A stretch of 63,745 bases of DNA, the filler included, from Collodictyon triciliatum (Eukaryota), in the NCBI GenBank assembly GCA_043381765.1. It is 4 parts of 4 records of this genome, joined end to end, with 100 filler letters (N's around TTAATTAATTAA, not from the genome) between each part and the next. Parts side by side here need not be neighbours in the genome. Positions count along the whole stretch, not along the records: positions 26,589 to 43,836 come from JBHJMP010001469.1; 3 more parts are not named here. One strand, written 5' to 3'. Shown here piece by piece: positions 965 to 57,673 of this stretch; the stretch's first letter is position 1, and each line of letters starts with the position of its first letter. Below the pieces are notes generated by a model, which saw only the letters and a program-made list of their open reading frames with translations, had not been told where the DNA came from and did not search any database. The position numbers were made by a program, and so were the translations under genes.

Positions 965-3900
965 TTAATCCAAGAGGGGATCTGTCAGCCTAGGCTGGGT
1001 CAAACCCTTCATCTGAACTAGCTTTTGTTTGATATCACCACCTTGAAAAATCGGAAAAACAAAAGCGACCGATGTAAAATAAAGCAGCCATGCCGAGTTA
1101 ATGCCGATGACAAGTATGGCGATCCAAGACTGAGAGCCGAACAAAGTCGACAGAAGCGATAGGAAAAATGAAATGAATATGATGTATAAACTGGACAGCT
1201 CCATTTGATTCTCGATTTTTGAGTTGTACGGCTGGTATTTCTTTTGCATCCAAATCGAACCCTGTATAATAATATTTTTGTTTATTTGTTAAAACTGTGT
1301 AATAATACGTGATGTAAAAGGAATTGGAACAAATATTGAATTTTAACCTGAATGACAACCACGAGGAGCGTAAAAAAAACGGATGGATTGGTATATGGAA
1401 TGACACTGAGGATAAAAGAGAAAACAAGACGACGCGCGATGATGACAAACTCCCAGTTCCTGTAAATCTAGATGAAATGAAGAAATAAAAATACTTTCAG
1501 TGACACTGGGATGATACTGCAACCATTATAAGTACTACCTCTTTGTATGGCAAGTATAAGAATCCATATCGCGCTCTTGGTTCGTATCCATGCCTTACTG
1601 ACATAATGCTTACTTTCCACCAGACGAAGACAGGTAAGGCAAGCAGGAATAGAATAAAGACAGGGACAGAGACAGCAAGAAGAGTTTTATACTCATACGA
1701 GGCCGGATTACATTGAATCCAAGGCTTGAAATTTAAATACCATCGATCTTCACCATCATCATAAACAGTACATCCAAAAACACCAAACACTTCTCGAGCA
1801 ACAGAGTAGTAAATGAAAAATAGAAGATTCAAAGTGATGAGCACCGCCTATTTTGGTATCAGCATAAGATTAATGAATTCTTGAATCGGTGCTATGGAAA
1901 GGACTGGTTTACGAAACCAAAGTATTTGATCGTTACCTTATTTTGATTGTGCCCGCGCCCAAAGTAGTACATTACAAAGCCCACACTGAGGAAAACAGGT
2001 ATTCTTACAAAACTTACAATTAGAGAGCTCAAGACACTATCAATTCCTAGGACACATGAAAGATTGGGGAATTGAATTGAGGCAGCTGATGACAGAGTGT
2101 CAATAAAGTTATTTGAGTCACTTGATTCATTGATTCCAGATGAAACAATCGAGAGCGTCTGCATATGAAACAGAATGATTCTTATCTTGGCTACAAAAAT
2201 TATGCAATTGTAAATAATCCCGTGATGAATTCTAATGTAAATTACAATTGAATTGTTCATAAAAGTATCTTCACAGATTGAAATGTAAAACCTTTATGCT
2301 CATACTGACCTGATTTTGAAGTTTCGGAGAAGTAGAGATACCCTATGAAAGCAGAAAATCCCATCACACCGATAATTAGGGTCGAATAAATCGCTTCGTC
2401 TTTGCACTCCACACACGATCTGCCTTGATTTCCATATCCTTTTTGGCATTTCGAGCATGCACGTCCCTGGTATCCATCTCTGCACAATTGGGTAATTTCA
2501 ACAGTGGTGTTTGAATTGGAGACTGTTTCAGGGACAAGTGTATCACATGACTTTGATAATGGGCATGGAAGAATCGATCTCAATCCAGCAACTTTTGGTG
2601 AAGCATGACAGTATCTCAAAGATGCTCCGTCTAGGCATTCACATTCTCTTGGGCATGGAATACAATTGTTTCCAAAACCAAAGTACCCAGGCAAGCATTT
2701 ACAAAATTCATAGTCATAATATTTTGGGTTTAAACTTATTTCTAATTTTATCAAACCCGAGCTTGAAATAATCGACGGACACAAGTAAGTTTTGGATTCA
2801 TTTTCCAAATTGAACGGTGCTGTGTAGCTCGTGAAATTGGGAAGAAAGTTGCCTGTTCCATGATTCATGGAGTTAATATCCAAACCTAGATATTCGAGTT
2901 TGGAAAACCCACTGTATGATTCAGGAATGTTTCCTCTAATCGGATTTCCAGAAAGTTCCAGAGAGGTCCATCTCAACAAATTAGTAAGCTCATCAAGTTT
3001 CGTTAAGCAGTTATTTCTCAAACTTAATTTTCTCAAATTGAAAACGAATCCGAATATTCTCCAATTTAATTCTCCGTAGAGTTTGTTGTCATCAATAAGA
3101 AGATTCTCATAAAAGTAAACAGTGCCTACAATTGGGACAATAAAGATGCTGACATCTCCTGAAAAGGAATTACTTCTCAAGTCTATTGTCATTAGATTTG
3201 GTAAAGACCAAAAACTATCAGATATGCTTCCAGAAAACCGATTATGAGATAAAGTCAAGGATTTTAATTCCGATAGCGTCTCAAAGAAATCTGGGATTGT
3301 TTCATTCATATCATTTCGAGACAAATCTATGTATTGGACGAGCGGAATATACAATTGACTGGATATAGGGCCCGTTATATTGTTCTCACTGACATCTAAT
3401 CTTGAAAGCATCGATAATTTGAAAGGAGGCAGATTTCCAGTAAAGTTGTTTCTAAATAGGACCATTTCTTTAAAATTTGAACACCTTTCGAAAGAAGGTA
3501 TCTGACCTCCAAGCTGATTTTCATAGACAGAAAACGATTCCATGAACTGCAGATTCGAAAAGTTTGGAACTGTGCCTATATAATTTCTTTATTGAATGAA
3601 CTTAAAGACATATTCTAATACATGAAAATTACCCGACAAAAGGTTTCTATCAAAATATATCCATTTTACTTCCGCAATACCATCGAAATTCGGAATGGTT
3701 CCTAATAGTCAGTTCATTGGTCTTGGTAAGTAAGACTATAGTGGAAAACAAAATGATTGTTTCATGGGTACCACCTCTCAATTTATTGCTGCTAAGGTAA
3801 ATCTCTTGAACAACTGGGATTCTATCGAAGTTTGGAGTGGAACCTATAAAAATACTCGAGCGTGAGTATTAAGTGCTATGATTCAAAATAGAAATAATGT

Positions 3901-31378: not shown

Positions 31379-31827
31379 GACGAGATAAACAAAGCGACCA
31401 CGCTCGGGAGTTGGGCGGATAAAGAACAATTTGTTTAGTTTCCAGAATTGGATAAATTCAGCACATGTTCAGCCTTGTTTCTGCCGTGTTCGATTCTGTC
31501 CACGATCGATCCTTCTATCCCCGCCGCGGGCGATCGGCATCTAGAGCAAAGACCAAAACAGACTCTCGTTGGGTTCGGCAATCCATTCGGCCAAGCAGCG
31601 GCTCGTGAAGAGGGTCTTGAGATATACCCATAAGGTTGCGATTGTAAAAACCTTCTGTCGAGAGAGCCACGAAGAATACTGACCCGAGCCCACTCTTGGT
31701 GCAGAAGTTTTTTTTTTTTTTTGTTGTTGTTGCTTTCTTTGTTTTGTTTTCTGAAGACTTCAAACCTAACAAGTTCGTTGTTAAGAAAGGAAGATATAGA
31801 AAGGCCAGCCTTTACCAAACCCACATC

Positions 31828-33176
31828 ATGTCGATCTTTGAATACAATGGAGCTGGAATGGTTGCCATGGCCGGAAAAGACTGTGTCGCGGTTGCTGCTG
31901 ATCGACGCTTTGGAAAAGAGCTCATGACCATCACGACAGACGCAGAGAAAGTCTTTAAAATCAACGACAGAGTCTTGTTTGGTCTGACTGGACTCCAAAC
32001 TGACGTCCTGACTTTGTAATAGCTTTATTGAGAAATATCTTTTTGCTTCCTTTACTTATTTTCCATACTTTTTAATTTTTGTAAAAAGTAAAATAACAAC
32101 TTTCGTAGTTACCTTCCTTTTGAACGAACCTTTTCTATATCGACCAAATGTCCAGAAACAAAAGCTTGGCTTTAAGAGGATACCTAACTATTCATGGAAC
32201 CCAAAAAAAAAAAACGACCACTAATATCTTTTTCTTAACTTTCTTTGCTTGTTACCCTTGCGAAACGAAGCTCCCAAAAAGTCAAGTTCAGAACAAACAT
32301 GTATAAGCTTCGTGAGGAGCGCGAAATCCGACCCTCAGTTTTTGGAAATCTTGTTACATCCATGCTATATGAGAAGAGGTTTATCAAAGGGCGTGTCCTA
32401 ACACTTCAATCAGAATAAGAAAATATTGCTTTGTATCGACATCATTTCTAGTTTTGTCTCTATGTATCTCCTTCTTCGTGCCCCCTTTTTTCTATGAACT
32501 CAACATGTATTTCAATAGGTTTGGGCCCTATTTCGTGTCCCCGATTGTTGCTGGATTAGAGCCCGACAACAAACCATTCATTTGTGAGTACGACAGCATC
32601 GGAGCCATCAACGTCACTAACGATTTTGTCGTCGGTGGAACTGCCACAGAGCAGCTCCTTGGTATGTGCGAATGCATCTGGAGACCTGACATGGTGCGTA
32701 CGTTCATGTGTATATTTGTGCGCAATTATTTCTTATCGCCATAGCCAGGATGACTCGCCTGATTTATTCGCTTTCTATGCGACCCTTTTGCTTTCTTTAA
32801 AATAGATAAATAAATCATTAGAACGCTGATGAGCTTTTTGAGGCTGTGTCCCAAGCCCTCCTGAACGCGACAGATCGCGATGCGTACAGTGGTTGGGGCG
32901 CAAATGTCTATGTCATGTATGTCTATATCCTAGCCTCCTTTTCCATCGCACAACTTTCGTAGCTAATATTTTATTTATTTATCTATTTATTATTTATTAT
33001 TTATTATTTATTTATTTGTCTTTCTTTATTTCTAGTATACTTTACCCTGCCTAAGAATAACAATTGATCGATGAATTAACTATTTTCCTCTTCTTTTATT
33101 CTTCTGCTTCTACTACTGCGATTGGAGTACCCCCAAGGGAATCACCGTCCGCCACCTCAAACAGCGCCAGGATTAA
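31828..33176 (+). CDS. PSMB3: 20S proteasome subunit beta type-3
   Basis: MSIFEYNGAGMVAMAGKDCVAVAADRRFG, GLTGLQTDV, YKLREEREI, LYEKRFGPYFVSPIVAGL, DFVVGGTATEQLLGMCE, DRDAYSGWGA, C-terminal RHLKQRQD*. Confidence 0.96.
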
Positions 33177-33571
33177 GAACACCAGCAAATCACACGAAAT
33201 ACAACCACATTCTCGGATAATTTTTCTATCTGCCTCTTCCCACCAAATAATGACTTAGCACTTGTACGCGCAACTCAAAAGGCTGCTGCCAGTATAGAAG
33301 GGTGGGGAGAAGAGAACACGCTTAATTGTGGTATTTTATGTTTTCTTTTTTTTTTTTATTCTTATTCCAGCAATAGACAAAGGAGGCAGGGGCTTATTTA
33401 TCAGAAGTGTGGGAGTCTATACAAGATAAAAAAAAGGCGCGTTTGCAGTATCGAAGCCAATCGTCCGCTCTGTGATTCGGTGCTATAGTCCTTGCTGTTA
33501 TTTCTTTTTCCTCTTTTTTCGTTTCATCCATTCACTTCTTGTGTCTGTCGCGGGGCAGTGGTGCAGATGAC

Positions 33572-34265
33572 TCAATGATCGAGCGGGATTTCCTTCATAT
33601 CGCGCAGGTAGTAACACGAGAGCTCCCCAAGGCTGCTGAGGATGAAAGTGGAGATGACGACAGTGACCCACCAGACCCAGTTTGTAGGGAACTTGTTCAT
33701 CACTGGGGGGGAAAAGGAGGTGGGATATTGCGTGAGGCATTCCTTTGTGATGATGGTGATGGTGATGGTGATGGTGATGGTGATGGTGATGGTGAAATAC
33801 CGATGCAGCTAATAGCAAAGTGGACAATCGCGATCGTGCACGCGTAGTCCCAAGACTTGCCCGTACTTTGCACAATAAAGTAAAACAAGGACGCAGCCAG
33901 GAGGAACGTGATTGTCAGGGTTAGCCAAGTCGCTGCGTGAAGGAAGGTGTATGCTATCAGAAGGAGACTGCTTTGAAGGGTCACAACTCCCGCCCAACCA
34001 TAAGGCAGAGTTTACGCGCAACAAAAGACAAGGCGATCAAGGCATCACAAAGCATCCAGGCGTGGGTGGGCATAGAAAAACCTATTTCGTGGTGATCTCC
34101 AAAGCCAAAGTGGTCAAAGTCGAAGGGCATCGTCCCGTCGATTGTGATGGAGAAGCAAGCACACAGGACAAAAGAAACCACGAAGTTGAGCGTGTAGAAG
34201 GAAGGGAAAAGTAGGCCCAGTTTCTTTAGGATCGTCTTTGTTTCGTCGTCGCTGACCTGGCCCAT
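33572..34265 (-). CDS. SYS1/TMEM244-family membrane protein (3 exons)
   Basis: Multi-TM protein with KSWDYACTIAIVHF, FPTNWVWW and LGELSCYYLRDMKEIPL, matching the SYS1 family pattern. Confidence 0.75.
33748..33794. repeat. (GATGGT)n hexamer repeat in an intron
   Basis: Read directly. Confidence 0.9.
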
Positions 34266-34872
34266 TCTTTGTAGAGTCTGTGGTGGTCGAGTGCGTGATT
34301 ATTCGCCTTGGAAACGCGGTGAGTGTGATCGTGGCGGTGAGGCTGTATGCTTGATCACGGCAGAAAAGGAGTACGCCTTTTGACGAGAGCAGGGTGTCTC
34401 TTGTGCAGACCAGTGGGGCTCTCTCGCCGAGCCTCTGATCAGGTCACACAAAAAAGAGTACAGAGAAAAACAGCACAAGACAATAAGATATGTTTACAAA
34501 AAGTGTGTGATCGAAGCATCCCGTTACTCAAAGTGCTTCTTATTCTTAGCCGTTTCACTGTCGTTGGTTTTTTTTTTCTTGGGGTTTTTTTACATGTATT
34601 GCTGTTTCAGTTCAAGATTTATTGGTTTTCTAGGTTGTCTGAGCAAAGGCTGTGTATGTATACTTGATTAACATGTGCAAATAGTCGGGGCTGTCATGAT
34701 ACCTCGTTTTCTTATTATTATTTTTTGTTTCTCATCTCCTTGCCACTCCTCCCAGGACGAGGCAGTTTGTTAGCGAAAGAAAAGGGAGAAAAAAAAACTA
34801 GGGTAATGTATCGAAAGAAAATGATAATATATAAAAAAAAATATATAATTCCCTAGTCACTTGTGCCGTGTA

Positions 34873-37800
34873 TCATTGCGGGTTTCTGGGTATGCGGTTG
34901 CACGCCTCTCCAAGAGCCCGGGCCATGTACACAGGAAGCCCGCTTCCCACCACGCGGTAGACTTCGTGTTCCCAGTCGGAAAGGGTTCCTTTGAAAGATG
35001 CCATAGGAGCCAACCATTGCTCCGGGATATGTTCCATCCCCATTCTCTGGGCGCAGTCGCTGAGTTTGAGCTTGCGTCCGTAGAATCTCGCAGCACGAGT
35101 CCCGTCAGGCAAGGGTGATTTGTTTTCCGTAGTCGTTATGTGCGGGCATATGCCAGGGTACGTCTTTGAGTACTTTCGCCAAACAGCAGGAGGCGGATAG
35201 CGTCCGCTAATCACTCTATTTCGATTCTGCCCAACTCCGTGTGGCCCTGGTATGAGATTCTGAATAAACTGCGCAGCGTTGTAAATATCCCCCCACTGGT
35301 TACTGCCTGACCCTGGAAATATTAACTTTGTAAGAGCATGCGATTCATGGGTTGTTCTTTCAAATAATAATGCGCAAATAGTAAAATATAATAATAATAG
35401 TAATAGTTATAATAATGGCATCAAATAAGGCTATTCCGATTCGTGAAAATGCACCTGGAACTGAGCCTGATTCAATCCACACAACCTTATCACGGTAGCG
35501 CGTAAGCAATTGAAGAGCCCAGCTGAGGATGTTCCCTTTATGGATGTTGTATCCGGCTCGAACAGAGGATGACTCTACCTGTTCGATAGGGGGCGAAATC
35601 CAGATGGCTTGAAATTGGTCGAAGCTTTGGATATTCCATATGTCATAAAGGTGGGTATTGCGAGAGCCGATGAAGCTGGACAGGTAGTGTGCCACCGGAT
35701 CGATTTCAAATCCAACACAATGATGACCTGCTTGCTCCAGACCCAACCGCGCATATCCAACCCCGTCAAAAAGTACAGCGACCGTCAAAGTTGGTCGCAA
35801 CCTGTGATAAATCCGTAAGTAACTCGATATATACGCGGAAGATAATGTATCGAATGATTTAATCTCAAAACAGAATAACCAAGTATAGAAAATATCATTT
35901 CATAATTCCTTTAGTGGGTAGACAAATAATATGTGTGATATAGTATTAAGGTCACCCTCTAAAAAGTGCAAAATCAGCATTTACACGGTATGCTCGGTCT
36001 TCGACCTACATAGCGCAGGACAATGTTATTAACTTTGGTAAACAACGACAAGAATTGAAACAGAAATAGAAGAAGTTGAGCTCTGCTGTTTGAGTGACTA
36101 AAAGAAACAATAAGAGGAGACTAATCATGCACATCCGAATGATGGAGATGGTTTGTTAGTATTCTCGCAGGCTGTTTGTGGGTGTGTGGATAGAGTATAG
36201 TGGTGTTGTTATTGTTTTACTAGAGGAACGTGATGTGCGCCTGATGAAGCAACAAGATGACTCGTATCGTATTCTTTCAGGGTAATACTTTCCCTAAAAT
36301 GATGTTTTAAAAAAATAGGAAGATCAGCTTCTCATTATTTATTTTTTTTTTTTTTGTAATGGCATAGACGAATATTTAAATTTTAACGAATGGATTTAAT
36401 TTGGCTTATTTCTATTTAAAAAAGTCCATGTGTACTTTTGCATATGTCAACCAAAATGCAGTCCAAAGTGCAATCAGTGATATATAATTGATAACTAAAT
36501 TATATATATAGATTTGGTAATACATTTTTCTTTTCGATTTTCTACCAGGACCATGGTGTTGCTCTGGATTAGGCCCACCTGTGTTGAATCTAAGATTTGC
36601 TCCAGGGTATCTGCAAAATCGTTAAGCGAAGTTATCCTCAATGCATTTTTTTTCTTCGAGGATGAAACTTTGTTATTTTGCATAAATTTATCGATTGAGA
36701 TTGGAATCCCCTTGTATCACATACTTTTCATGGTCGTGTAACCCAGTGGTTTCTGTCAAGCTGTTTTAATTAAATATATTTGATTTGTAATGACCATACC
36801 GTTCTCACAAGAATACAAATATATAATTTTGTAAAAATCATGGTTCGCCAATTTGCTGATAATTATGTGCATCCAAATATATCTTTCTTAGGAATGAGGG
36901 AGGAAGAAAGTTTTCATGTTTAGGACGATAAATCATATTGTTCTACTAACCAGTCATCTTGCTCAATAGTCCCACGCATGTGTGGCTCCCTTCTTGCTGG
37001 CCCCATACGCAGAGAAGTATCAATACCAGTCGAGAGTTTTTCTGAGCTATTCCCGTCTGACCCAACTATTGCAGAGCTTCCAGATGATTGCAAGACCAGT
37101 GTTGTGCTGACATCTGATTTCTTTGTCTGTAGAGAGCCTGACTTCGCCCCGTGCAATGAATCAGCTACTGTATCGTGTACTGATTCTGTAGAGAGAGGGG
37201 AAGATGATCGACCGATCACCCTCTCATCTAAACCACCCATACCCCTGGGTGGATGGGGACTTATTTGTGTAGGCATCGCAAACCCTGGCGATGGCCCGGT
37301 GGGATATGGCGTTTGGTAGCCTAAAGGGTATTCATTCCGGCCCCATGGATTCGTTGGTGTCATACCAAAAGGAGCTGGTTGGTATGCACCAGGATACATA
37401 CTGTGTGGGCATTTAAATAGTGCTTAATGTATATTGAAATGGGATATGAATTCGTTCTATGTATATTTTATTTTTCAGGAGCAAAACTCAGAGAATAACA
37501 AAATATAAATACTACATTTCTAAAATCTTTGCACACTACATAAATGAGATTTTGGGCAATATCATACACGGTAATAAGTTAATCAATGGGGAAAAAAAAA
37601 TACCCATAAGGATGTGTAGGGTGATGAACAGTGCCATGATGTGGGATGTACTGCATGTTACGCACTTGATTCTGTATAGGGGCTTCTTCATTTATCATGG
37701 ATAGAAGACTGTGTGCCAAAAAGGTGATGATTAAATTGATATATCGAATTTCAAATAGAGCATATGAATCCTCAAAGAGAACAAAAGAGACAATCGCCTG

Positions 37801-38649
37801 TTGTAATTGCGATAAACGATACAGTTGACATTATTGTTTTAGACTTAATGTGATGGAAATGGAACGATGATTGAAAAATAATATTGCATTCAAAATGAAC
37901 GCGAGAAAATGGACATATAAAGTACCTTTTGATGGATGGCAATTGAGGGTAATCAATTCCTTCAATCCTCGGAATCGGCCTATAACCATTCTCGATTATC
38001 CACATGTATTAATTTGTGAGATGGTACATTTGGTCGAGCATTCTATAATACAGAATTTAATCATAGAGAATTATTAGAATAACAACACAACAAACCGCAT
38101 CCAGCTCAGCTGATATGCTTCGTTGCAAACGTTGCGGAGCTCAGCCTCATGGACGCTTCCATCAAAAGTATAGCGATGCGGAGACTTTCCAGATCGGTGA
38201 GTCTCATTCTGACCTCCAGGGTTCAATGTTGTATCGGTGGCCGTATGTGAATACCCGGGCTTTGCATCAGCCAAGTCAATGACAGCGCTGGGAGGGTTTT
38301 CATGGGTATGTACATGTCCATGTACAAAGCTGCGTGCTTGAAATCCAGGGCTAGGATTGAAGGCAGGCTCCTGAATGACGCGCTCTGCTCCAGAGAGACG
38401 ATAATCTTGTGTGTTTAGTCCATAGCCGTTCGTGATATGTGGCTCTAGACACGCGCTGCTTTGGTTACTGTAGTACTGTGCTTGCTTTTGCTGCCTTTCG
38501 GCGTCACTGGCCATGATCGGTTCGACTCTGGTGCGGGGCGATTGGAGAATCTCGTGGGTGGTACTATGGCCGTGGCTTTGCGGTGGCGAGACAAGTGAGC
38601 TTGGATGAAGGTCGGCCAGGGGGGCAACGCAATTGCTTGAATGCAGCAT
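34873..38649 (-). CDS. Low-complexity N-terminus fused to a C5-cytosine DNA methyltransferase-fold domain with substituted catalytic residues
   Basis: Last two exons (35455-35801, 34873-35312) carry C5-MTase motifs in order: I VLFDGVG, II GFEID, III YDI, IV WISPPI (Cys absent), VI WIESG, VII YNAAQF, VIII QNRNR, IX RKLKLSDCAQRMG, X YRVVGSGLPVYMARALG. Upstream same-strand exons (38096-38649, ~37926-37979, ~37604-37708, ~36950-37400) splice in frame. The middle connecting exons are uncertain. Confidence 0.7.
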
Positions 38650-38650
38650 T

Positions 38651-38710
38651 ATCTTTGACGCGAAAAGCTTTGAATCGAATAAAGAGAGGAGTGATATTTG
38701 ACGCGAAAAG
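38651..38710 (+). mobile_element. Micro-insertion of LINE 3' end with TSD
   Basis: ctttgaatcgaataaagagaggagtg between atctttgacgcgaaaag (38651-38667) and atatttgacgcgaaaag (38694-38710), 16/17 match. Confidence 0.85.
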
Positions 38711-39231
38711 GAAAAGGAAAAGGAAAAGGAAAAGGAATAGAAAAACAAAACAACAAAACAACAAACTAACAAACCAACAGAAGAGCAGAAGAACACAAGA
38801 ACAGAAGAAAAGGAAAAAAGACGAAAAGGAGATAAGGAAAAGGGGGAAAGGGGAAAGATCCACCAATACAAGGACGTGCAATAGCTCTTTGGAGTTGTTG
38901 CCCATGAAAAAAGGACTTAAAGATGGCCCGATAATGGTTTGTGATCAGAGCTGGCTCTGGCTGTGGGTACGTAGAAGACGGAGAGGAAAGGGAAAGGGAA
39001 AGGAAAGGGCGATCCTGTCCTTTGGGCGCGGTGTCCACAGTCGCAGATTTATCGAAAGACATCCCACACATGCCATTCCCAAATTCTGCAAAGAATCGAA
39101 AAGAAAAGCCGCCAGACTAAATTGCCCACGGGCTGGGTTCGTCCGGCACAAGAAAATACAGCAAGGCAGATGAGAAGGCTGTAAGTAGATTGTAAGACAA
39201 TGCACATTTAATTGTGTGGGTGGGTGGGGGG

Positions 39232-43155: not shown

Positions 43156-43836
43156 TGGATTGTGCTTGCCGTGGTTGGGATTCTCGTCTGCGCTGAAGTT
43201 GCGCGTGGGCAATGTACCGTACCCAGCGAGCAACCCTTCGGTCTTGTGCTGAACCCTGACCTCTCTGTCTCCATCTGCCTTGGCTCCACCATCAATCCGC
43301 AACCCCCTAGCATGGTGGCCTCTATCAACCAATGGCTCCCGGAGTACAACAACCCAGCCCCGGAGATAACCAGCACGAGCAATAATCCCAATCTCGTCTT
43401 CACGTCCACCAGTACCATCTACATCACCTTCATTACCGAAGGGGCTGGATACCGTAATTCGCTTGGATATTTCGTGTTCGATGCCAACCAGAACATCATC
43501 TCCAAGAACGTTGTTTTTCCGGATGCATCCAATGACCCAGCCACCCTCCAGACTGGTCAAACAGTCAAGATAGGGCCGTTCTCAGCCGGGCGAAGAGTTG
43601 GTTTCTTCCTGATTGCGAATGGGTTTACCAACAAGTTCTGGTCCACCGACCTATCCGGCTCTACCTATTACTCTATCTGGACAAAGAACCCAGACGGGAA
43701 GCAGCACATAGCAATGTTCACCGAAAGTACCTCTGGAAAAGTCCTCATCGGCTTTGAGGACTTGTACAACCTAGGAGATGGAGATTATAACGACGCCGTC
43801 TTCTTCGTTACAGTCGACGGTTCCATCGACAACAAC
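43156..43836 (+). CDS. Secreted DUF4114-domain protein, partial (first exon not located; cut by spacer)
   Basis: Signal-like WIVLAVVGILVCAEVARG; FITEGAGYRNSLGYF; VGFFLIANG; IGFEDL..GDGDYNDAVF, typical of DUF4114 / LruC-associated domains. Long intron-free stretch. Confidence 0.75.
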
Positions 43837-43936
43837 NNNNNNNNNNNNNNNNNNNNNNNNNNNNNNNNNNNNNNNNNNNNTTAATTAATTAANNNNNNNN
43901 NNNNNNNNNNNNNNNNNNNNNNNNNNNNNNNNNNNN
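43837..43936. other. Artificial scaffold spacer
   Basis: N44-TTAATTAATTAA-N44. Confidence 0.95.
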
Positions 43937-46406: not shown

Positions 46407-47129
<723 letters not shown>

Positions 47130-47396
47130 TGAATAAATCCGCCCCACTCGCCCACACACCCGTTGTCCAGTTTGGCATCCACCTGGCGCGCCCTTGTCCA
47201 GACTCCGAAGACGCCCTGCTTCGTTGCAAGGCTGAGGACTTGGACCGGGGCGGGTTGGAGTCAGGGCCGCCCCTCTTTGTTTGTCTTGGATGTACTTTAT
47301 ATGTGCCACAGCCGAGGCCGCCTGCCCTGCTTGTGCTATTTGGTATGGCTTTGTGGCTGCCTCGTGAGGAGGCCGAGCCGCTCTGCCCAGAGGTGA

Positions 47397-55095: not shown

Positions 55096-57673
55096 CTAGA
55101 ACATTCCGCCCATGCCGCCCATACCGCCACCCATGGGCATCGGGGGCTCCTTGTCCTCCTTGGGCAGCTCGACGACGGCGGCCTCGGCGGTGATCATCAG
55201 GGAGCTGACACTGCACGACAAGCAAGCAACGTAAGTGGGTGTGTGAGTAGACACGGGATTGTGGTCGGCAAAACAAAAGGGCGCAGCAGCAGACGCCACA
55301 CACGCGGGAAAGCAGGGCGAGAGAGGATACTGTAAATGGTATGGGGTGGTGGTGGGGCGGCACCTTGTGGCGTCGAGCAGGGCGGTGCGGACGACCTTTG
55401 TGGGGTCGATGATGCCGGCCTTGAACATGTCGACGTACTCGTCGGTCTGGGCGTTGTAGCCGAGGGAGGCGGTGAGCTCCTCCACCTTGCCGACGACGAC
55501 GGCGCCCTCGACCCCGGCGTTGGAGGCGATGGTTGCGATGGGCACGCGCAGGGCGTTCTGCACGATGCGGATGCCGACGTCCTGGGACATGTTGGGGCCC
55601 TTTGTGTCCCGCAGGATGCGCGAGGCCCTCAGCAGCGCCACGCCACCTCCGGGCACAATGCCCTCCTCGACGGCGGCGCGTGTGGCGCACAGGGCGTCTG
55701 TGACGCGGTCCTTCTTCTCGTTCATCTCCACCTCCGAGGCTCCGCCCACCTTCAGCACCGCCACGCCGTGCGACAGCTTCGCCAGGCGCTCCTGCAGCTT
55801 CTCGCGCTCGTACTCGCTGGTCGTCTGTCCAATCAGGTCCCGCAGCAGCCCGCAGCGCTCCTCGATGGCCTTGCGGCCCCCGGCGCCTTCCATGATGATC
55901 GTGTCGTCCTTGGAGATCGAGATCTTCTTGGCGCTGCCCAGGATCTCGTCCAGATTCGGGTTGTCGGGGTGGTCCGGGTTGTTGGGGTCGCCCAGGCCGC
56001 CTTCCAGCTTCAGTCCCAGCTCGTCGCTCACCAGCTGTGAATTGTGTGCGAGGGCAAGTTAGTCGTGGGGCGAGACAAACACCTTATCTGTGGTTAGGCC
56101 GTGTGAATGTTTGGGTGTGCGTACCTGGCCGCCAGTGAGGATGGCAAGGTCCTCCAGTTGCGACTTGCGGTTGTCGCCAAAGCCAGGGGCCTTGACAGCA
56201 GCCACACGCACGATGCCGCGCAGCTTGTTGATGATCAGTGTGTTGAGTGCATCGCCCTCCACATCCTCGGCCACGATGACGAGCGGCTTGTTGATGCGCA
56301 CGATGTGGTTGAGAACTGGTGCCAGGTGCATGAAGGATGTCACCTTCTTGTCCACAAGCAACAACTTGGCGTCCTCAAACTCGGTCTTCTGAGTCTTGAC
56401 GTCGGTCAGGAAGTGGCGCGAAATGTAACCGCGGTCAAACTTCATGCCTTCGATCACCTCCAGTTCGTTGACGAGGGTCTTGCCTTCCTGTAGTGGGGGT
56501 TGGTGTGTTGTGGTGAGTGGTAAGCAACATTCTCGAGGGAGGGAGGGGGGTGGGTGGGTCACACGAAAGAGAGGCTGACATAGAGGATTGACGGAAGACA
56601 GCTACTTACTGCGACAGTGATGACGCCTTCCTTGCCGACCTTCTCCATGGCACTGGCGATGAGGTCTCCAATTTCAGCGTCAGAGTTTGCCGAGATGGTG
56701 GCAACCTTATGCGTTCAGATGGGTTATTTTAACTAAGAGCCTCAACGAGTTGCTACACCAGCCTCCAATGGTTCAAACTGTGCCTCCACATAGAATCCAA
56801 AGGGGTTTAAGGCTGATCATACCTGAGCAATCTCCTCACGGGTGGTGACGGTCTTCGTCATTTGACGGAGCTGGTCGACGACTTTCTGGACGGCGAAGTT
56901 CATGCCGCGGCGAATGTCCTCGGGGTTCATTCCGGCAGCGACAGCCTTGAAACCCTCCTGGCAGAGAGCCTGGGTAAGAACGGTAGCTGTGGTCGTTCCG
57001 TCTCCGGCAATGTCGTTGGTCTTCGAGGCGACCTGGCGAACAAGCTGGGCACCGAGGTTCTCATACTTGTCCTTCAGCTCGATATGCTTGGCGACTGTCA
57101 CACCGTCCTTGGTGATCTTTGGAGCTCCGAACGATTGTTCTAGGATGACATTTCTGCCCTGTGGGTGAGCGAGGTCACGTGAGTGAGTATAAGCCCAGGG
57201 CACATAGAGACCCTCTCAGGGCGGAGGTGGGTTAGCGGGCAGCGGACTTACCTTGGGCCCTAGTGTGACCTTGACTGCATTAGCGAGCTTGTCAACTCCT
57301 GCCAGCATTCCCTGGCGGGCGGCCATTCCGAAGCGGACGTCCTTGGCGGCGTAGAATCTCGCATTCTTCCGGAGCGTGGACTAAGAATCGTATTAAAGAA
57401 AGTTGTGGGTTAATACTTGTCCCCCGTAGGCGTGCTCTGTCACTCGGAATAGTTTCAGAGGGTGTTGGGAATATGGACTTCGTTTGTCGAAATCCTTCAG
57501 TGTAACTATGACTATATTGAACCACCATATGGTTTTGTCTGGCCAAAGTTTTTCATCACGAGGGCAATACGGGCATCGAGCACCGGGGTAAAAGTTTGTT
57601 TCTCAGTGTTCATAAAATGGTGACTTACAGTAAGTGGAGACGCCTTGTGCAGCATCGAACCAGAGCCCAGCAT
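55096..57673 (-). CDS. HSP60: Mitochondrial chaperonin Hsp60 (cpn60)
   Basis: Presequence ...[83 protein letters not shown]-terminal tail. Confidence 0.97.

Follow-up and report, generated by a model that had tools for sequence, protein, structure and literature searches.

Loss of catalytic competence is known among cytosine-C5 DNA methyltransferases (C5-MTases). Mammalian DNMT3L is an inactive regulatory paralog of DNMT3A/B in which the cofactor motifs have been lost. In Arabidopsis, DRM3 is described as a catalytically inactive paralog with a regulatory role (PMC2965745). A second group of unusual family members are the orphan eukaryotic DNA methyltransferases (DNMTs), which are laterally acquired, lineage-restricted and placed outside DNMT1/2/3/5/6; the census describing them collected proteins by PF00145 at E<1e-4 (Sarre et al. 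2025, PMC12344493). The same source cites bacterial N4-cytosine methyltransferases that have been co-opted in bdelloid rotifers and Marchantia. Here, we report on a gene from Collodictyon triciliatum (assembly GCA_043381765.1) that is located at 34873..38649 on the minus strand of a DNA stretch of 63,745 nucleotides, filler included, which we call the window. The product of this gene, termed the window protein below, ends in a C5-MTase-like domain that is related to phage enzymes and has lost the catalytic residues. We consider it likely that it is a domesticated phage-derived pseudo-methyltransferase, kept as a DNA-binding and possibly S-adenosylmethionine (SAM)-binding regulator module and not as an enzyme.

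The last ~260 amino acids of the window protein make up the compact C5-MTase domain, and a low-complexity region of ~470 amino acids is located ahead of it. A preliminary description of this locus, made from the sequence alone, had proposed a methyltransferase with all motifs in canonical order, but with PI for PC in motif IV, ESG for ENV in motif VI and GS for GN in motif X. The alignment with 30 intact relatives places motifs I, II, III, IV, VI, VIII and X in this order and confirms PPI, ESG and GSG as the true counterparts of PPC, ENV and GN. The N-terminal half of the domain is encoded by exon 9 (35455..35801, minus strand as all features of the gene) and contains motif I LFDGVGY (aa 480-486, 35773-35753), motif II FEID (aa 501-504, 35710-35699), motif III YDIWN (35647-35633), motif IV SPPIEQ (aa 539-544, 35596-35579) and motif VI IESG (aa 579-582, 35476-35465). 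Exon 10 (34873..35312) encodes the C-terminal half and the stop codon, with YNAAQF (35283-35266), motif VIII QNRNR (aa 614-618, 35229-35215), the short target-recognition segment ITTTENKSPLPDG (35139-35101) and motif X GSGLP (aa 708-712, 34947-34933).

The nucleophile of motif IV is absent: in the alignment, the place of the invariant Cys is taken by Ile542 (codon ATC), and the same Ile is present in P0002, a protein from Diphylleia rotans (CRuMs), the nearest known relative of the window gene. Inspection of both sequences revealed no Cys in the loop after motif IV. In motif VI the Glu is kept and Asn and Val are lost (ESG in the window protein, ETG in Diphylleia), and the Gly-Asn of motif X is replaced by GSG in the window protein and GTG in Diphylleia, where the motifs read SPPIEQ and GTGVP. 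Two Palpitomonas bilix clusters, in which the motif IV region appears to be absent, show ESV / DGA at motif VI and GSG / GTG at motif X. Intact phage and metagenome relatives have PPC, ENV and GN at these places. Among the 31 non-eukaryotic rows of the 37-row alignment (206-694 amino acids long, mostly 227-305; fragments <200 amino acids set aside), P-C was found in 30, E-N in 30 and G-N in 28, the exceptions being the degenerate rows P0049 and P0038 and a GDG in P0026; PPC together with W[VI]EN was present in 23 of the 23 usable viral or bacterial locus proteins. In 16 intact members, 44 columns reach a conservation of 90% or more; the window protein keeps 34 of these and Diphylleia 37. Seven changes are common to both proteins (Cys70, Ser74, Asn122, Val123, Pro146, Ala180 and Asn248 in P0007 numbering), and these shared changes are concentrated in motifs IV, VI and X. 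Both keep Gly9, Gly16 and Gly21 of motif I, Glu28 of motif II, Asp49 of motif III, the motif VI Glu and Gln148, Arg150 and Arg152 of motif VIII, so that the retention of the SAM-binding motifs I-III and of QxRxR, which had also been noted from the sequence, is borne out by the alignment.

Since the nucleophile is lost, canonical C5 methylation should no longer be possible. Motifs I-III form the cofactor pocket of C5-MTases, and the QxRxR of motif VIII and the Glu of motif VI make the contacts to the flipped cytosine and the DNA; because these elements survive, the domain is likely kept for DNA binding and possibly for SAM binding. Their retention in both orthologs would also suit a protein that is still an enzyme and uses the SAM pocket and base flipping for a cysteine-independent chemistry, such as methylation of an exocyclic amino group or of a modified base. 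Both orthologs have the three positions replaced in the same way (Ile, Ser/Thr, Ser/Thr), fixed and without drift, SPPI-E stands where amino-methyltransferases have (D/N/S)PP(Y/F), and the C5 fold can support other transfers, a C5-carboxymethyltransferase (8yf3) being among the structural matches described below. However, Ile is non-aromatic and cannot stack like the Y/F of the amino-methyltransferases, and SPP is ancestral (ASPPCQ in the intact family) and thus not a newly evolved amino-methyltransferase motif. The loss of the motif X Asn speaks against an optimised cofactor site, and the Palpitomonas relatives appear to be without the cofactor half. We regard such an enzyme as distinctly improbable, and it is highly doubtful that the SPP-I-E / E-S/T-G / G-S/T-G variant is alive and provides a cysteine-independent DNA mark in CRuMs and possibly Cryptista; if it did, this mark would be written by an enzyme class that is undetected in Pfam-based surveys.

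The relationship to phage enzymes was evident from the search of phage genomes with tblastn. Exon 9 matched a gene of Rhizobium phage RHph_N17 with 42% identity (E 1e-20) and exon 10 the adjoining part of the same gene with 43% identity (E 2e-27); since both exons match a single phage gene with such E-values, the similarity is far beyond chance. The phage methylase (QIG73285) has 238 amino acids, contains SPPCQ, ENV, QNRSR and GNGVP and reaches 56 bits on PF00145, and intact relatives in general score above the cut-off of this model (37.7-56.1 bits; P0001 56 bits). Exon 9 furthermore matched the PHROGs family phrog_363 'DNA methyltransferase' (E 2.9e-8; exon 10 only at E>0.1), type II methyltransferase models of PADLOC (E down to 7e-7) and NCBIfam dcm (TIGR00675, E 0.023), and exon 10 gave no match to the latter two. 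The nearest clusters in the ESM Atlas carried PF00145 in 30 of 30 cases for exon 9 and belonged to the PF00145 set in 27 of 30 cases for exon 10. The search of PDB sequences resulted only in a chance match of exon 9 to a capsid protein (E 1.2) and in none for exon 10, and a word-based homolog search with exon 9 against longer proteins found nothing. In RHph_N17 (MN988530 41205-44860) the methylase gene is located directly downstream of genes annotated as QueE, QueC, 6-pyruvoyl-tetrahydropterin synthase and GTP cyclohydrolase I; given this 7-deazaguanine precursor pathway, deazaguanine modification of the DNA may occur in the phage alongside methylation of cytosine.

When 1.84 billion cluster representatives were searched exhaustively by phmmer, using exon 10 as query, only 48 of them reached E<=1e-3. 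Two of them were rejected as repeat-summed artefacts, P0004 (Tuta absoluta, 4171 amino acids), which has no match with the full domain, and P0034 (Spirogloea, 1343 amino acids), which matches with seven 4.4-bit repeats; the remaining 46 are credible and represent fragments or compact-family proteins. We looked up 24 of the 48: 19 are unnamed entries from metagenome, Logan, ENA and JGI collections, several of which are labelled 'site-specific DNA-cytosine methylase', three are eukaryotic clusters and two are the artefacts. A pattern scan of IMG/VR viral contigs added 193 relatives (of the 80 loci that were kept, about 21 are full length), and three loci were found in 185,579 species-representative prokaryote genomes, a lower bound that was obtained with a single peptide pattern. 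Of the 23 usable locus proteins, viral or bacterial, 21 can be aligned to residues 5-252 of the window domain after splicing, with identities of 33-45%. In metagenome contigs, the scan with exon 9 alone produced 208 pattern matches, none of them a relative, and a metagenome scan with the alignment of window and Diphylleia proteins gave no orthologs and two distant loci (31% and 46% identity). Apart from the three eukaryotic clusters, the compact family has been seen in phages, in viral contigs and in metagenomes.

The preliminary description had seen the short target-recognition region as closer to bacterial, phage or giant-virus enzymes than to DNMT1/2/3. The phage part of this proposal stands, as the relatives come from phages and viral contigs, and none of the 24 phmmer matches looked up is named DNMT1, DNMT2 or DNMT3; this comparison is one of search matches, since the trees described below held no DNMT1/2/3 sequences. 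The giant-virus part has to be given up, because the relatives found are phages. A candidate for such an origin, relative L015 on a viral contig of 408 kb, was rejected, as it sits among packed, overlapping open reading frames (ORFs) of prokaryotic style; judged from this gene packing, the contig reads as a jumbo phage. We also noticed a 3'-open frame on this contig (4920-5612), which we take, by eye, to be ThyX-like.

For the fold, we modelled the domain from Diphylleia, whose identity to that of the window protein is 67%, on the basis of the 37-row alignment. The AlphaFold2 model has a predicted local distance difference test score (pLDDT) of 88.5 and a predicted template modelling score (pTM) of 0.87, and its top Foldseek matches are M.HaeIII, DNMT2, DNMT3A/B and M.HhaI. 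With VIA-align, Z scores of 16.6-18.5 were obtained over 213-248 residues (17-18.5 with M.HhaI, M.HaeIII and DNMT1/3), and every one of the 50 listed rows is a DNA cytosine-C5 (carboxy)methyltransferase. The predicted structure of the ortholog thus contains the two-lobed C5-MTase fold with a Rossmann-type catalytic and a small target-recognition domain. Taken together, sequence comparisons and model show that the domain descends from a small phage-borne family of C5-MTases of compact size (about 235-275 amino acids), the fold of which it is predicted to keep.

An intact fold and a conserved domain would likewise be expected if the protein were a non-catalytic partner that binds a cytosine methyltransferase still active in its organism and regulates it, which would be a special case of a pseudoenzyme. 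Inactive C5-MTase paralogs that are needed by active ones have precedent (DRM3/DRM2, PMC2965745). Complexes of DNMT3A/B with DNMT3L are among the structural matches of the Diphylleia model. However, there is no active paralog within the window, the domain descends from monomeric-looking phage enzymes and not from the DNMT3 clade, and motifs I-III are kept here, unlike in DNMT3L with its lost cofactor motifs. By analogy such a partner role may be considered, but we think it unlikely.

The gene itself is well defined. The interval 34873-38649, which had been given in the preliminary description, is exactly the coding sequence (CDS), with the ATG at 38649-38647 and the stop codon at 34875-34873, and the intron-split open frame proposed there consists of ten exons and nine GT..AG introns of 114-230 nt. 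After joining the ten exons in silico, the spliced CDS has 2196 nt, is open throughout and encodes 731 amino acids; the GC content is 30% in the introns versus 50.5% in the CDS. Contigs of three public sequencing runs (X1, X2 and X3, with sequence-word shares of 0.19, 0.08 and 0.00) were aligned to 34800-38750. No contig of X3 aligned in this interval; those of X1 and X2 are 97-98% identical to the window sequence and thus derive from close relatives. They skip the GT..AG gaps at 37980-38095, 37401-37603, 36761-36950, 36611-36724, 36294-36523, 36006-36220, 35802-35955 and 35313-35454 and hereby bridge eight of the nine exon joints. The remaining donor, that of exon 2 at 37925, was placed from loose contig ends and the GT. 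A single X1 contig of 1460 nt runs unbroken from exon 3 to exon 10, and a second one links exons 1 and 2. Since the long contig spans exons 3 to 10, one mRNA carries both the methylase-like domain and the Pro-rich region, and together with P0002, which is a single ORF of 907 amino acids, this shows that the proposed fusion is one gene and not two. The intron at 35313..35454 (142 nt, GT..AG), bridged by contigs from both X1 and X2, interrupts the domain itself; as this is a spliceosomal intron, the domain belongs to a eukaryotic genome and does not stem from contaminating phage DNA.

Upstream of the domain, exon 1 (38096..38649, aa 1-185) contains the start codon and a His/Ser/Pro-rich disordered region, and it is joined by an X1 contig to exon 2 (37926..37979), which encodes the first part of the motif YPQLPSIKSLL. 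Exon 3 (37604..37708) is followed by exon 4 (36951..37400, aa 239-388), which is Pro/Gly-rich and then carries a conserved Ser-rich block, RSSSPLS...SGSLQTK (aa 302-345), recognised by its identity to P0002. The joints of the following small exons were taken from the contigs: exon 5 (36725..36760, 36 nt) encodes the end of the block REPxxRGTIxxDDCxTE (aa 375-391), which is conserved in P0002, exon 6 (36524..36610) a basic patch, GRKSKRK (aa 422-428, 36546-36526), exon 7 (36221..36293) the stretch behind it and exon 8 (35956..36005, 50 nt) the sequence VEDRxYRV just ahead of the domain, which is kept in P0002. Loose ends of X1 and X2 contigs at 35002, 35575, 37116 and 38515 share one non-genomic tail, presumably the complement of a template-switching cDNA adaptor. 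As several of these ends are internal to exons, they are not marks of transcription starts; one of the loose ends precedes the second in-frame ATG (Met46) by a single base. Microsatellites of the (GGAAAA)n and (AACAA)n type are found directly ahead of the start codon, in the 5' flank at 38690-38830.

P0002, the Diphylleia rotans transcript, was the best phmmer match (66% identity for exon 10, E 5.5e-63) and shares the architecture of the window gene. Neither this ortholog, with SPPIEQ, ETG and GTG, nor the X1 and X2 sequences restore PC or ENV, since the listed differences of X1/X2 from the window sequence, 34 in number, all lie outside the motif codons; the loss of catalysis put forward in the preliminary description is thereby supported. 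In 50-residue blocks, identity to Diphylleia amounts to 14-32% up to residue 300, to 54% and 42% in aa 301-400 and to 14% in aa 401-450; most of the domain reaches 64-74%, its final two blocks 48% and 58%, and the alignment shows the domain to be the most conserved part of the protein. The 34 differences comprise 16 synonymous and 18 nonsynonymous ones (5 and 7 in the domain), which corresponds to a crude nonsynonymous/synonymous ratio of about 0.4 if about 3/4 of the sites are nonsynonymous, a value calculated from small counts. Codons 619-621 (35215-35206), directly after QNRNR in the otherwise conserved flank of motif VIII, show adjacent nonsynonymous differences in X1 and X2 (V>L, I>M and S>R).

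These data also bear on the question whether the gene is a decaying relic, that is a transferred methylase that is dead and drifting, with transcription and open frame persisting by chance. The catalytic residues are lost, the stem leading to window and Diphylleia proteins is long (about 1.0 changes per column, see below), and the nonsynonymous/synonymous count against the close relatives is not low. However, the frame is open over ten exons and 731 codons and also in the ortholog of 907 amino acids, the domain is 48-74% identical between the species and the N-terminal regions only 14-32%, 34-37 of the 44 family-conserved columns are kept, and splicing is precise. We consider a relic very improbable.

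The tree analyses point to a common history of the eukaryotic sequences. In the careful tree (LG+C20 PMSF, 37 rows and 256 columns, two Streptococcus-phage methylases as outgroup), the eukaryotic rows grouped together with one degenerate metagenome row (bootstrap/SH-aLRT 82/97), and window and Diphylleia proteins were sisters (100/100). A quick tree that also contained the viral and bacterial locus proteins (58 rows, 245 columns) recovered the four eukaryotic rows, i.e. the window protein, Diphylleia and two from Palpitomonas, as one clade (SH-aLRT 94), as did a quick tree of 55 rows and 210 columns from which the motif IV, VI and X, variable-segment and shared-insert columns had been dropped (SH-aLRT 92). 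Fragments <200 amino acids (<230 for locus proteins), the two artefacts and the duplicates P0003, P0050 and P0051 were left out of the trees; the two larger trees were also built without P0043, a very long row, and the last one without L016, L017 and L025, which are identical loci. The metagenome row mentioned, P0049 (243 amino acids, from a Logan contig of 28 kb), is without PPC and has VERH for VENV and CTGNF for GNGVP; it is located inside the eukaryotic clade in the careful tree and outside in both larger ones. A single eukaryotic clade inside the phage family is thus moderately supported by these alignments. Because the backbone of the family is unresolved, the donor cannot be named. The Palpitomonas homologs (P0003/P0051/P0052 and P0009) seemingly contain only the C-terminal half of the domain, from motif VI to X, and carry low-complexity extensions rich in Gly/Arg or Lys/Glu; P0009 has in addition a C-terminal region of ~200 amino acids.

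The N-terminal region encoded by the upstream exons is rich in Ser, Pro, Gly, Thr and His (S 10.7%, P 9.6%, H 6.4%), and the Pro/Ser/His-rich region with the motif LPSIKSLL had been described correctly: the motif is found at aa 198-205 across the joint of exons 2 and 3. It is part of YPQLPSIKSLL (aa 195-205, 37951..37702 across the intron). The preliminary description had likened it to short motifs of transcription regulators, a suggestion that was examined by way of its conservation: YPQLPSIKSLL is identical in Diphylleia in 11 of 11 positions amid a region that is otherwise 14-32% identical. The string LPSIKSLL and variants of it were not found in the literature searched, and exon 1 matched no Pfam family. 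The opening residues of exon 1, M-x-H-x-S, align to the start of P0002, and tblastn with P0002 matches 37225-36941, in exon 4, at 46% identity. Diphylleia KRGRKRG aligns with the basic patch GRKSKRK just upstream of the domain, which may be a nuclear localisation signal.

On these data, a compact cytosine methylase of phage type entered a eukaryote and gained introns, one of them inside the domain, and the domain is fused to the disordered N-terminal region of ~470 amino acids, the whole being transcribed as one spliced mRNA. The motif IV Cys, the motif VI Asn-Val and the motif X Asn have been replaced, here and in Diphylleia. In the present-day protein, the disordered N-terminus might deliver the domain to the nucleus through the basic patch, short conserved motifs such as YPQLPSIKSLL might link it to partners, and the protein could act as a regulator of chromatin or transcription. 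From the conserved motifs we infer a nuclear role as a DNA- or SAM-binding regulator.

Several observations weigh against this interpretation. The transcript data come from relatives that are ~97-98% identical and not from the source organism, and the contigs are taken as spliced cDNA because their joints are bounded by GT..AG, the run records giving RNA only as a guess. At the joint of exons 2 and 3 (intron 37709-37925) only loose ends were found, each side matching the exon of the other. Exon 9 reaches 16.9 bits on PF00145 (E 0.004), below the gathering cut-off of 22, and exon 10 has no Pfam match. Binding of SAM and DNA is deduced from retained motifs; in M.HhaI the motif X Asn lines the cofactor pocket, and its loss might also weaken SAM binding here. 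The apparent lack of motifs I-IV in the two Palpitomonas clusters implies that cofactor binding is not constant in the eukaryotic clade, and as two of the rows are partial or long, long-branch attraction might contribute to the grouping. Finally, the ratio of 16 synonymous to 18 nonsynonymous differences (5:7 in the domain), small numbers as they are, implies only moderate constraint. With these points taken into account, we still favour the phage-derived pseudo-methyltransferase as the probable reading.

The genomic surroundings are those of a eukaryotic chromosome. By eye we recognised frames for a proteasome beta subunit-like protein (31648-32744, plus strand), a secreted DUF4114-like protein (43156-43884, plus strand), a ubiquitin-ribosomal protein S27a fusion (46407-47132, plus strand), mitochondrial HSP60 (55096-56058, minus strand, matching PF00118 proteins) and a leucine-rich-repeat/EGF-like receptor (2257-3588, minus strand). 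The nearest relatives of the domain being phage genes, phage or bacterial contamination had to be considered, and, since captured DNMTs are known from retrotransposons (PMC12344493), so had a transposable element carrying its own methylase. Against both stand the GT..AG intron inside the domain with eight more upstream and the ordinary eukaryotic neighbours; tblastn with P0002 found no second copy of the gene within the window, and there was no reverse transcriptase or integrase among the ORFs of >=110 amino acids between 26 and 46 kb. Both explanations were rejected as hardly credible. The GC content of the window varies from 23% to 56%, and stretches of N are located at about 7.2-7.9, 26.1-26.6 and 43.9 kb. 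At 33498-33914 a run of 16 His in one frame coincides with (GD)n on the opposite strand; this is a trinucleotide repeat inside or beside a neighbouring gene.

Selection thus appears to maintain a phage-type methylase without catalytic residues in one protist lineage, in no fewer than two members that are only distantly related, and likely relatives exist in Palpitomonas. If the eukaryotic clade is real, the acquisition would be very old and date from before CRuMs and Cryptista separated, or else the gene would have passed from one eukaryote to another. Should the domain bind SAM and flip cytosines, a methylase would have become a DNA-binding module that senses sequence or cofactor, and this virus-derived pseudoenzyme would be independent of the DNMT3L and DRM3 cases. 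DNA methylation surveys collect PF00145 proteins and assume that they are enzymes, and a degenerate member below the threshold escapes such a census. P0002 has no PF00145 match at E<=0.01 and exon 9 one at E 0.004, so that a PF00145 filter at E<1e-4 would miss both. The literature searched contained nothing on a conserved, phage-derived, cysteine-less member of the C5 methylases; a search for Diphylleia rotans and methyltransferase returned no title concerning DNA methylation, and one for catalytically inactive, laterally acquired cytosine methyltransferases in protists nothing on the compact family. Inactive DNMT paralogs and orphan DNMTs of foreign origin are known, and a conserved phage-derived member without the Cys appears, judged from these searches, to be new.

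Compared with the compact phage C5 methylases (RHph_N17 QIG73285, IMG/VR and metagenome proteins), the window domain is alike in homology over its whole length, with 40-45% identity, in motif order I-X, in size and in the very short target-recognition segment, and, according to the ortholog model, in the C5-MTase fold. The phage enzymes have PPC, ENV and GN and score above the Pfam cut-off, whereas the window protein has PPI, ESG and GSG and scores below; in addition, the window gene contains introns, encodes the N-terminal extension of 470 amino acids and is located on a eukaryotic chromosome. With DNMT3L and DRM3 it shares a C5-MTase fold kept without catalytic competence, presumably by selection for a regulatory role. 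However, these two arose by duplication of resident DNMT3 and DRM genes and act on an active paralog, whereas the window protein is phage-derived and has kept its cofactor motifs. Like the orphan DNMTs, it is a lineage-restricted C5-MTase homolog with prokaryotic or viral affinities, but orphan DNMTs, as described, have few companion domains and are discussed as possibly active (PMC12344493), in contrast to the long N-terminal fusion found here. With the N4 enzymes of bdelloid rotifers and Marchantia it has in common that a prokaryote-type DNA methyltransferase entered the chromatin biology of a eukaryote, with fusion or adaptation to the host; those enzymes are active and write a new mark (PMC12344493), whereas the window protein is without the catalytic residues.

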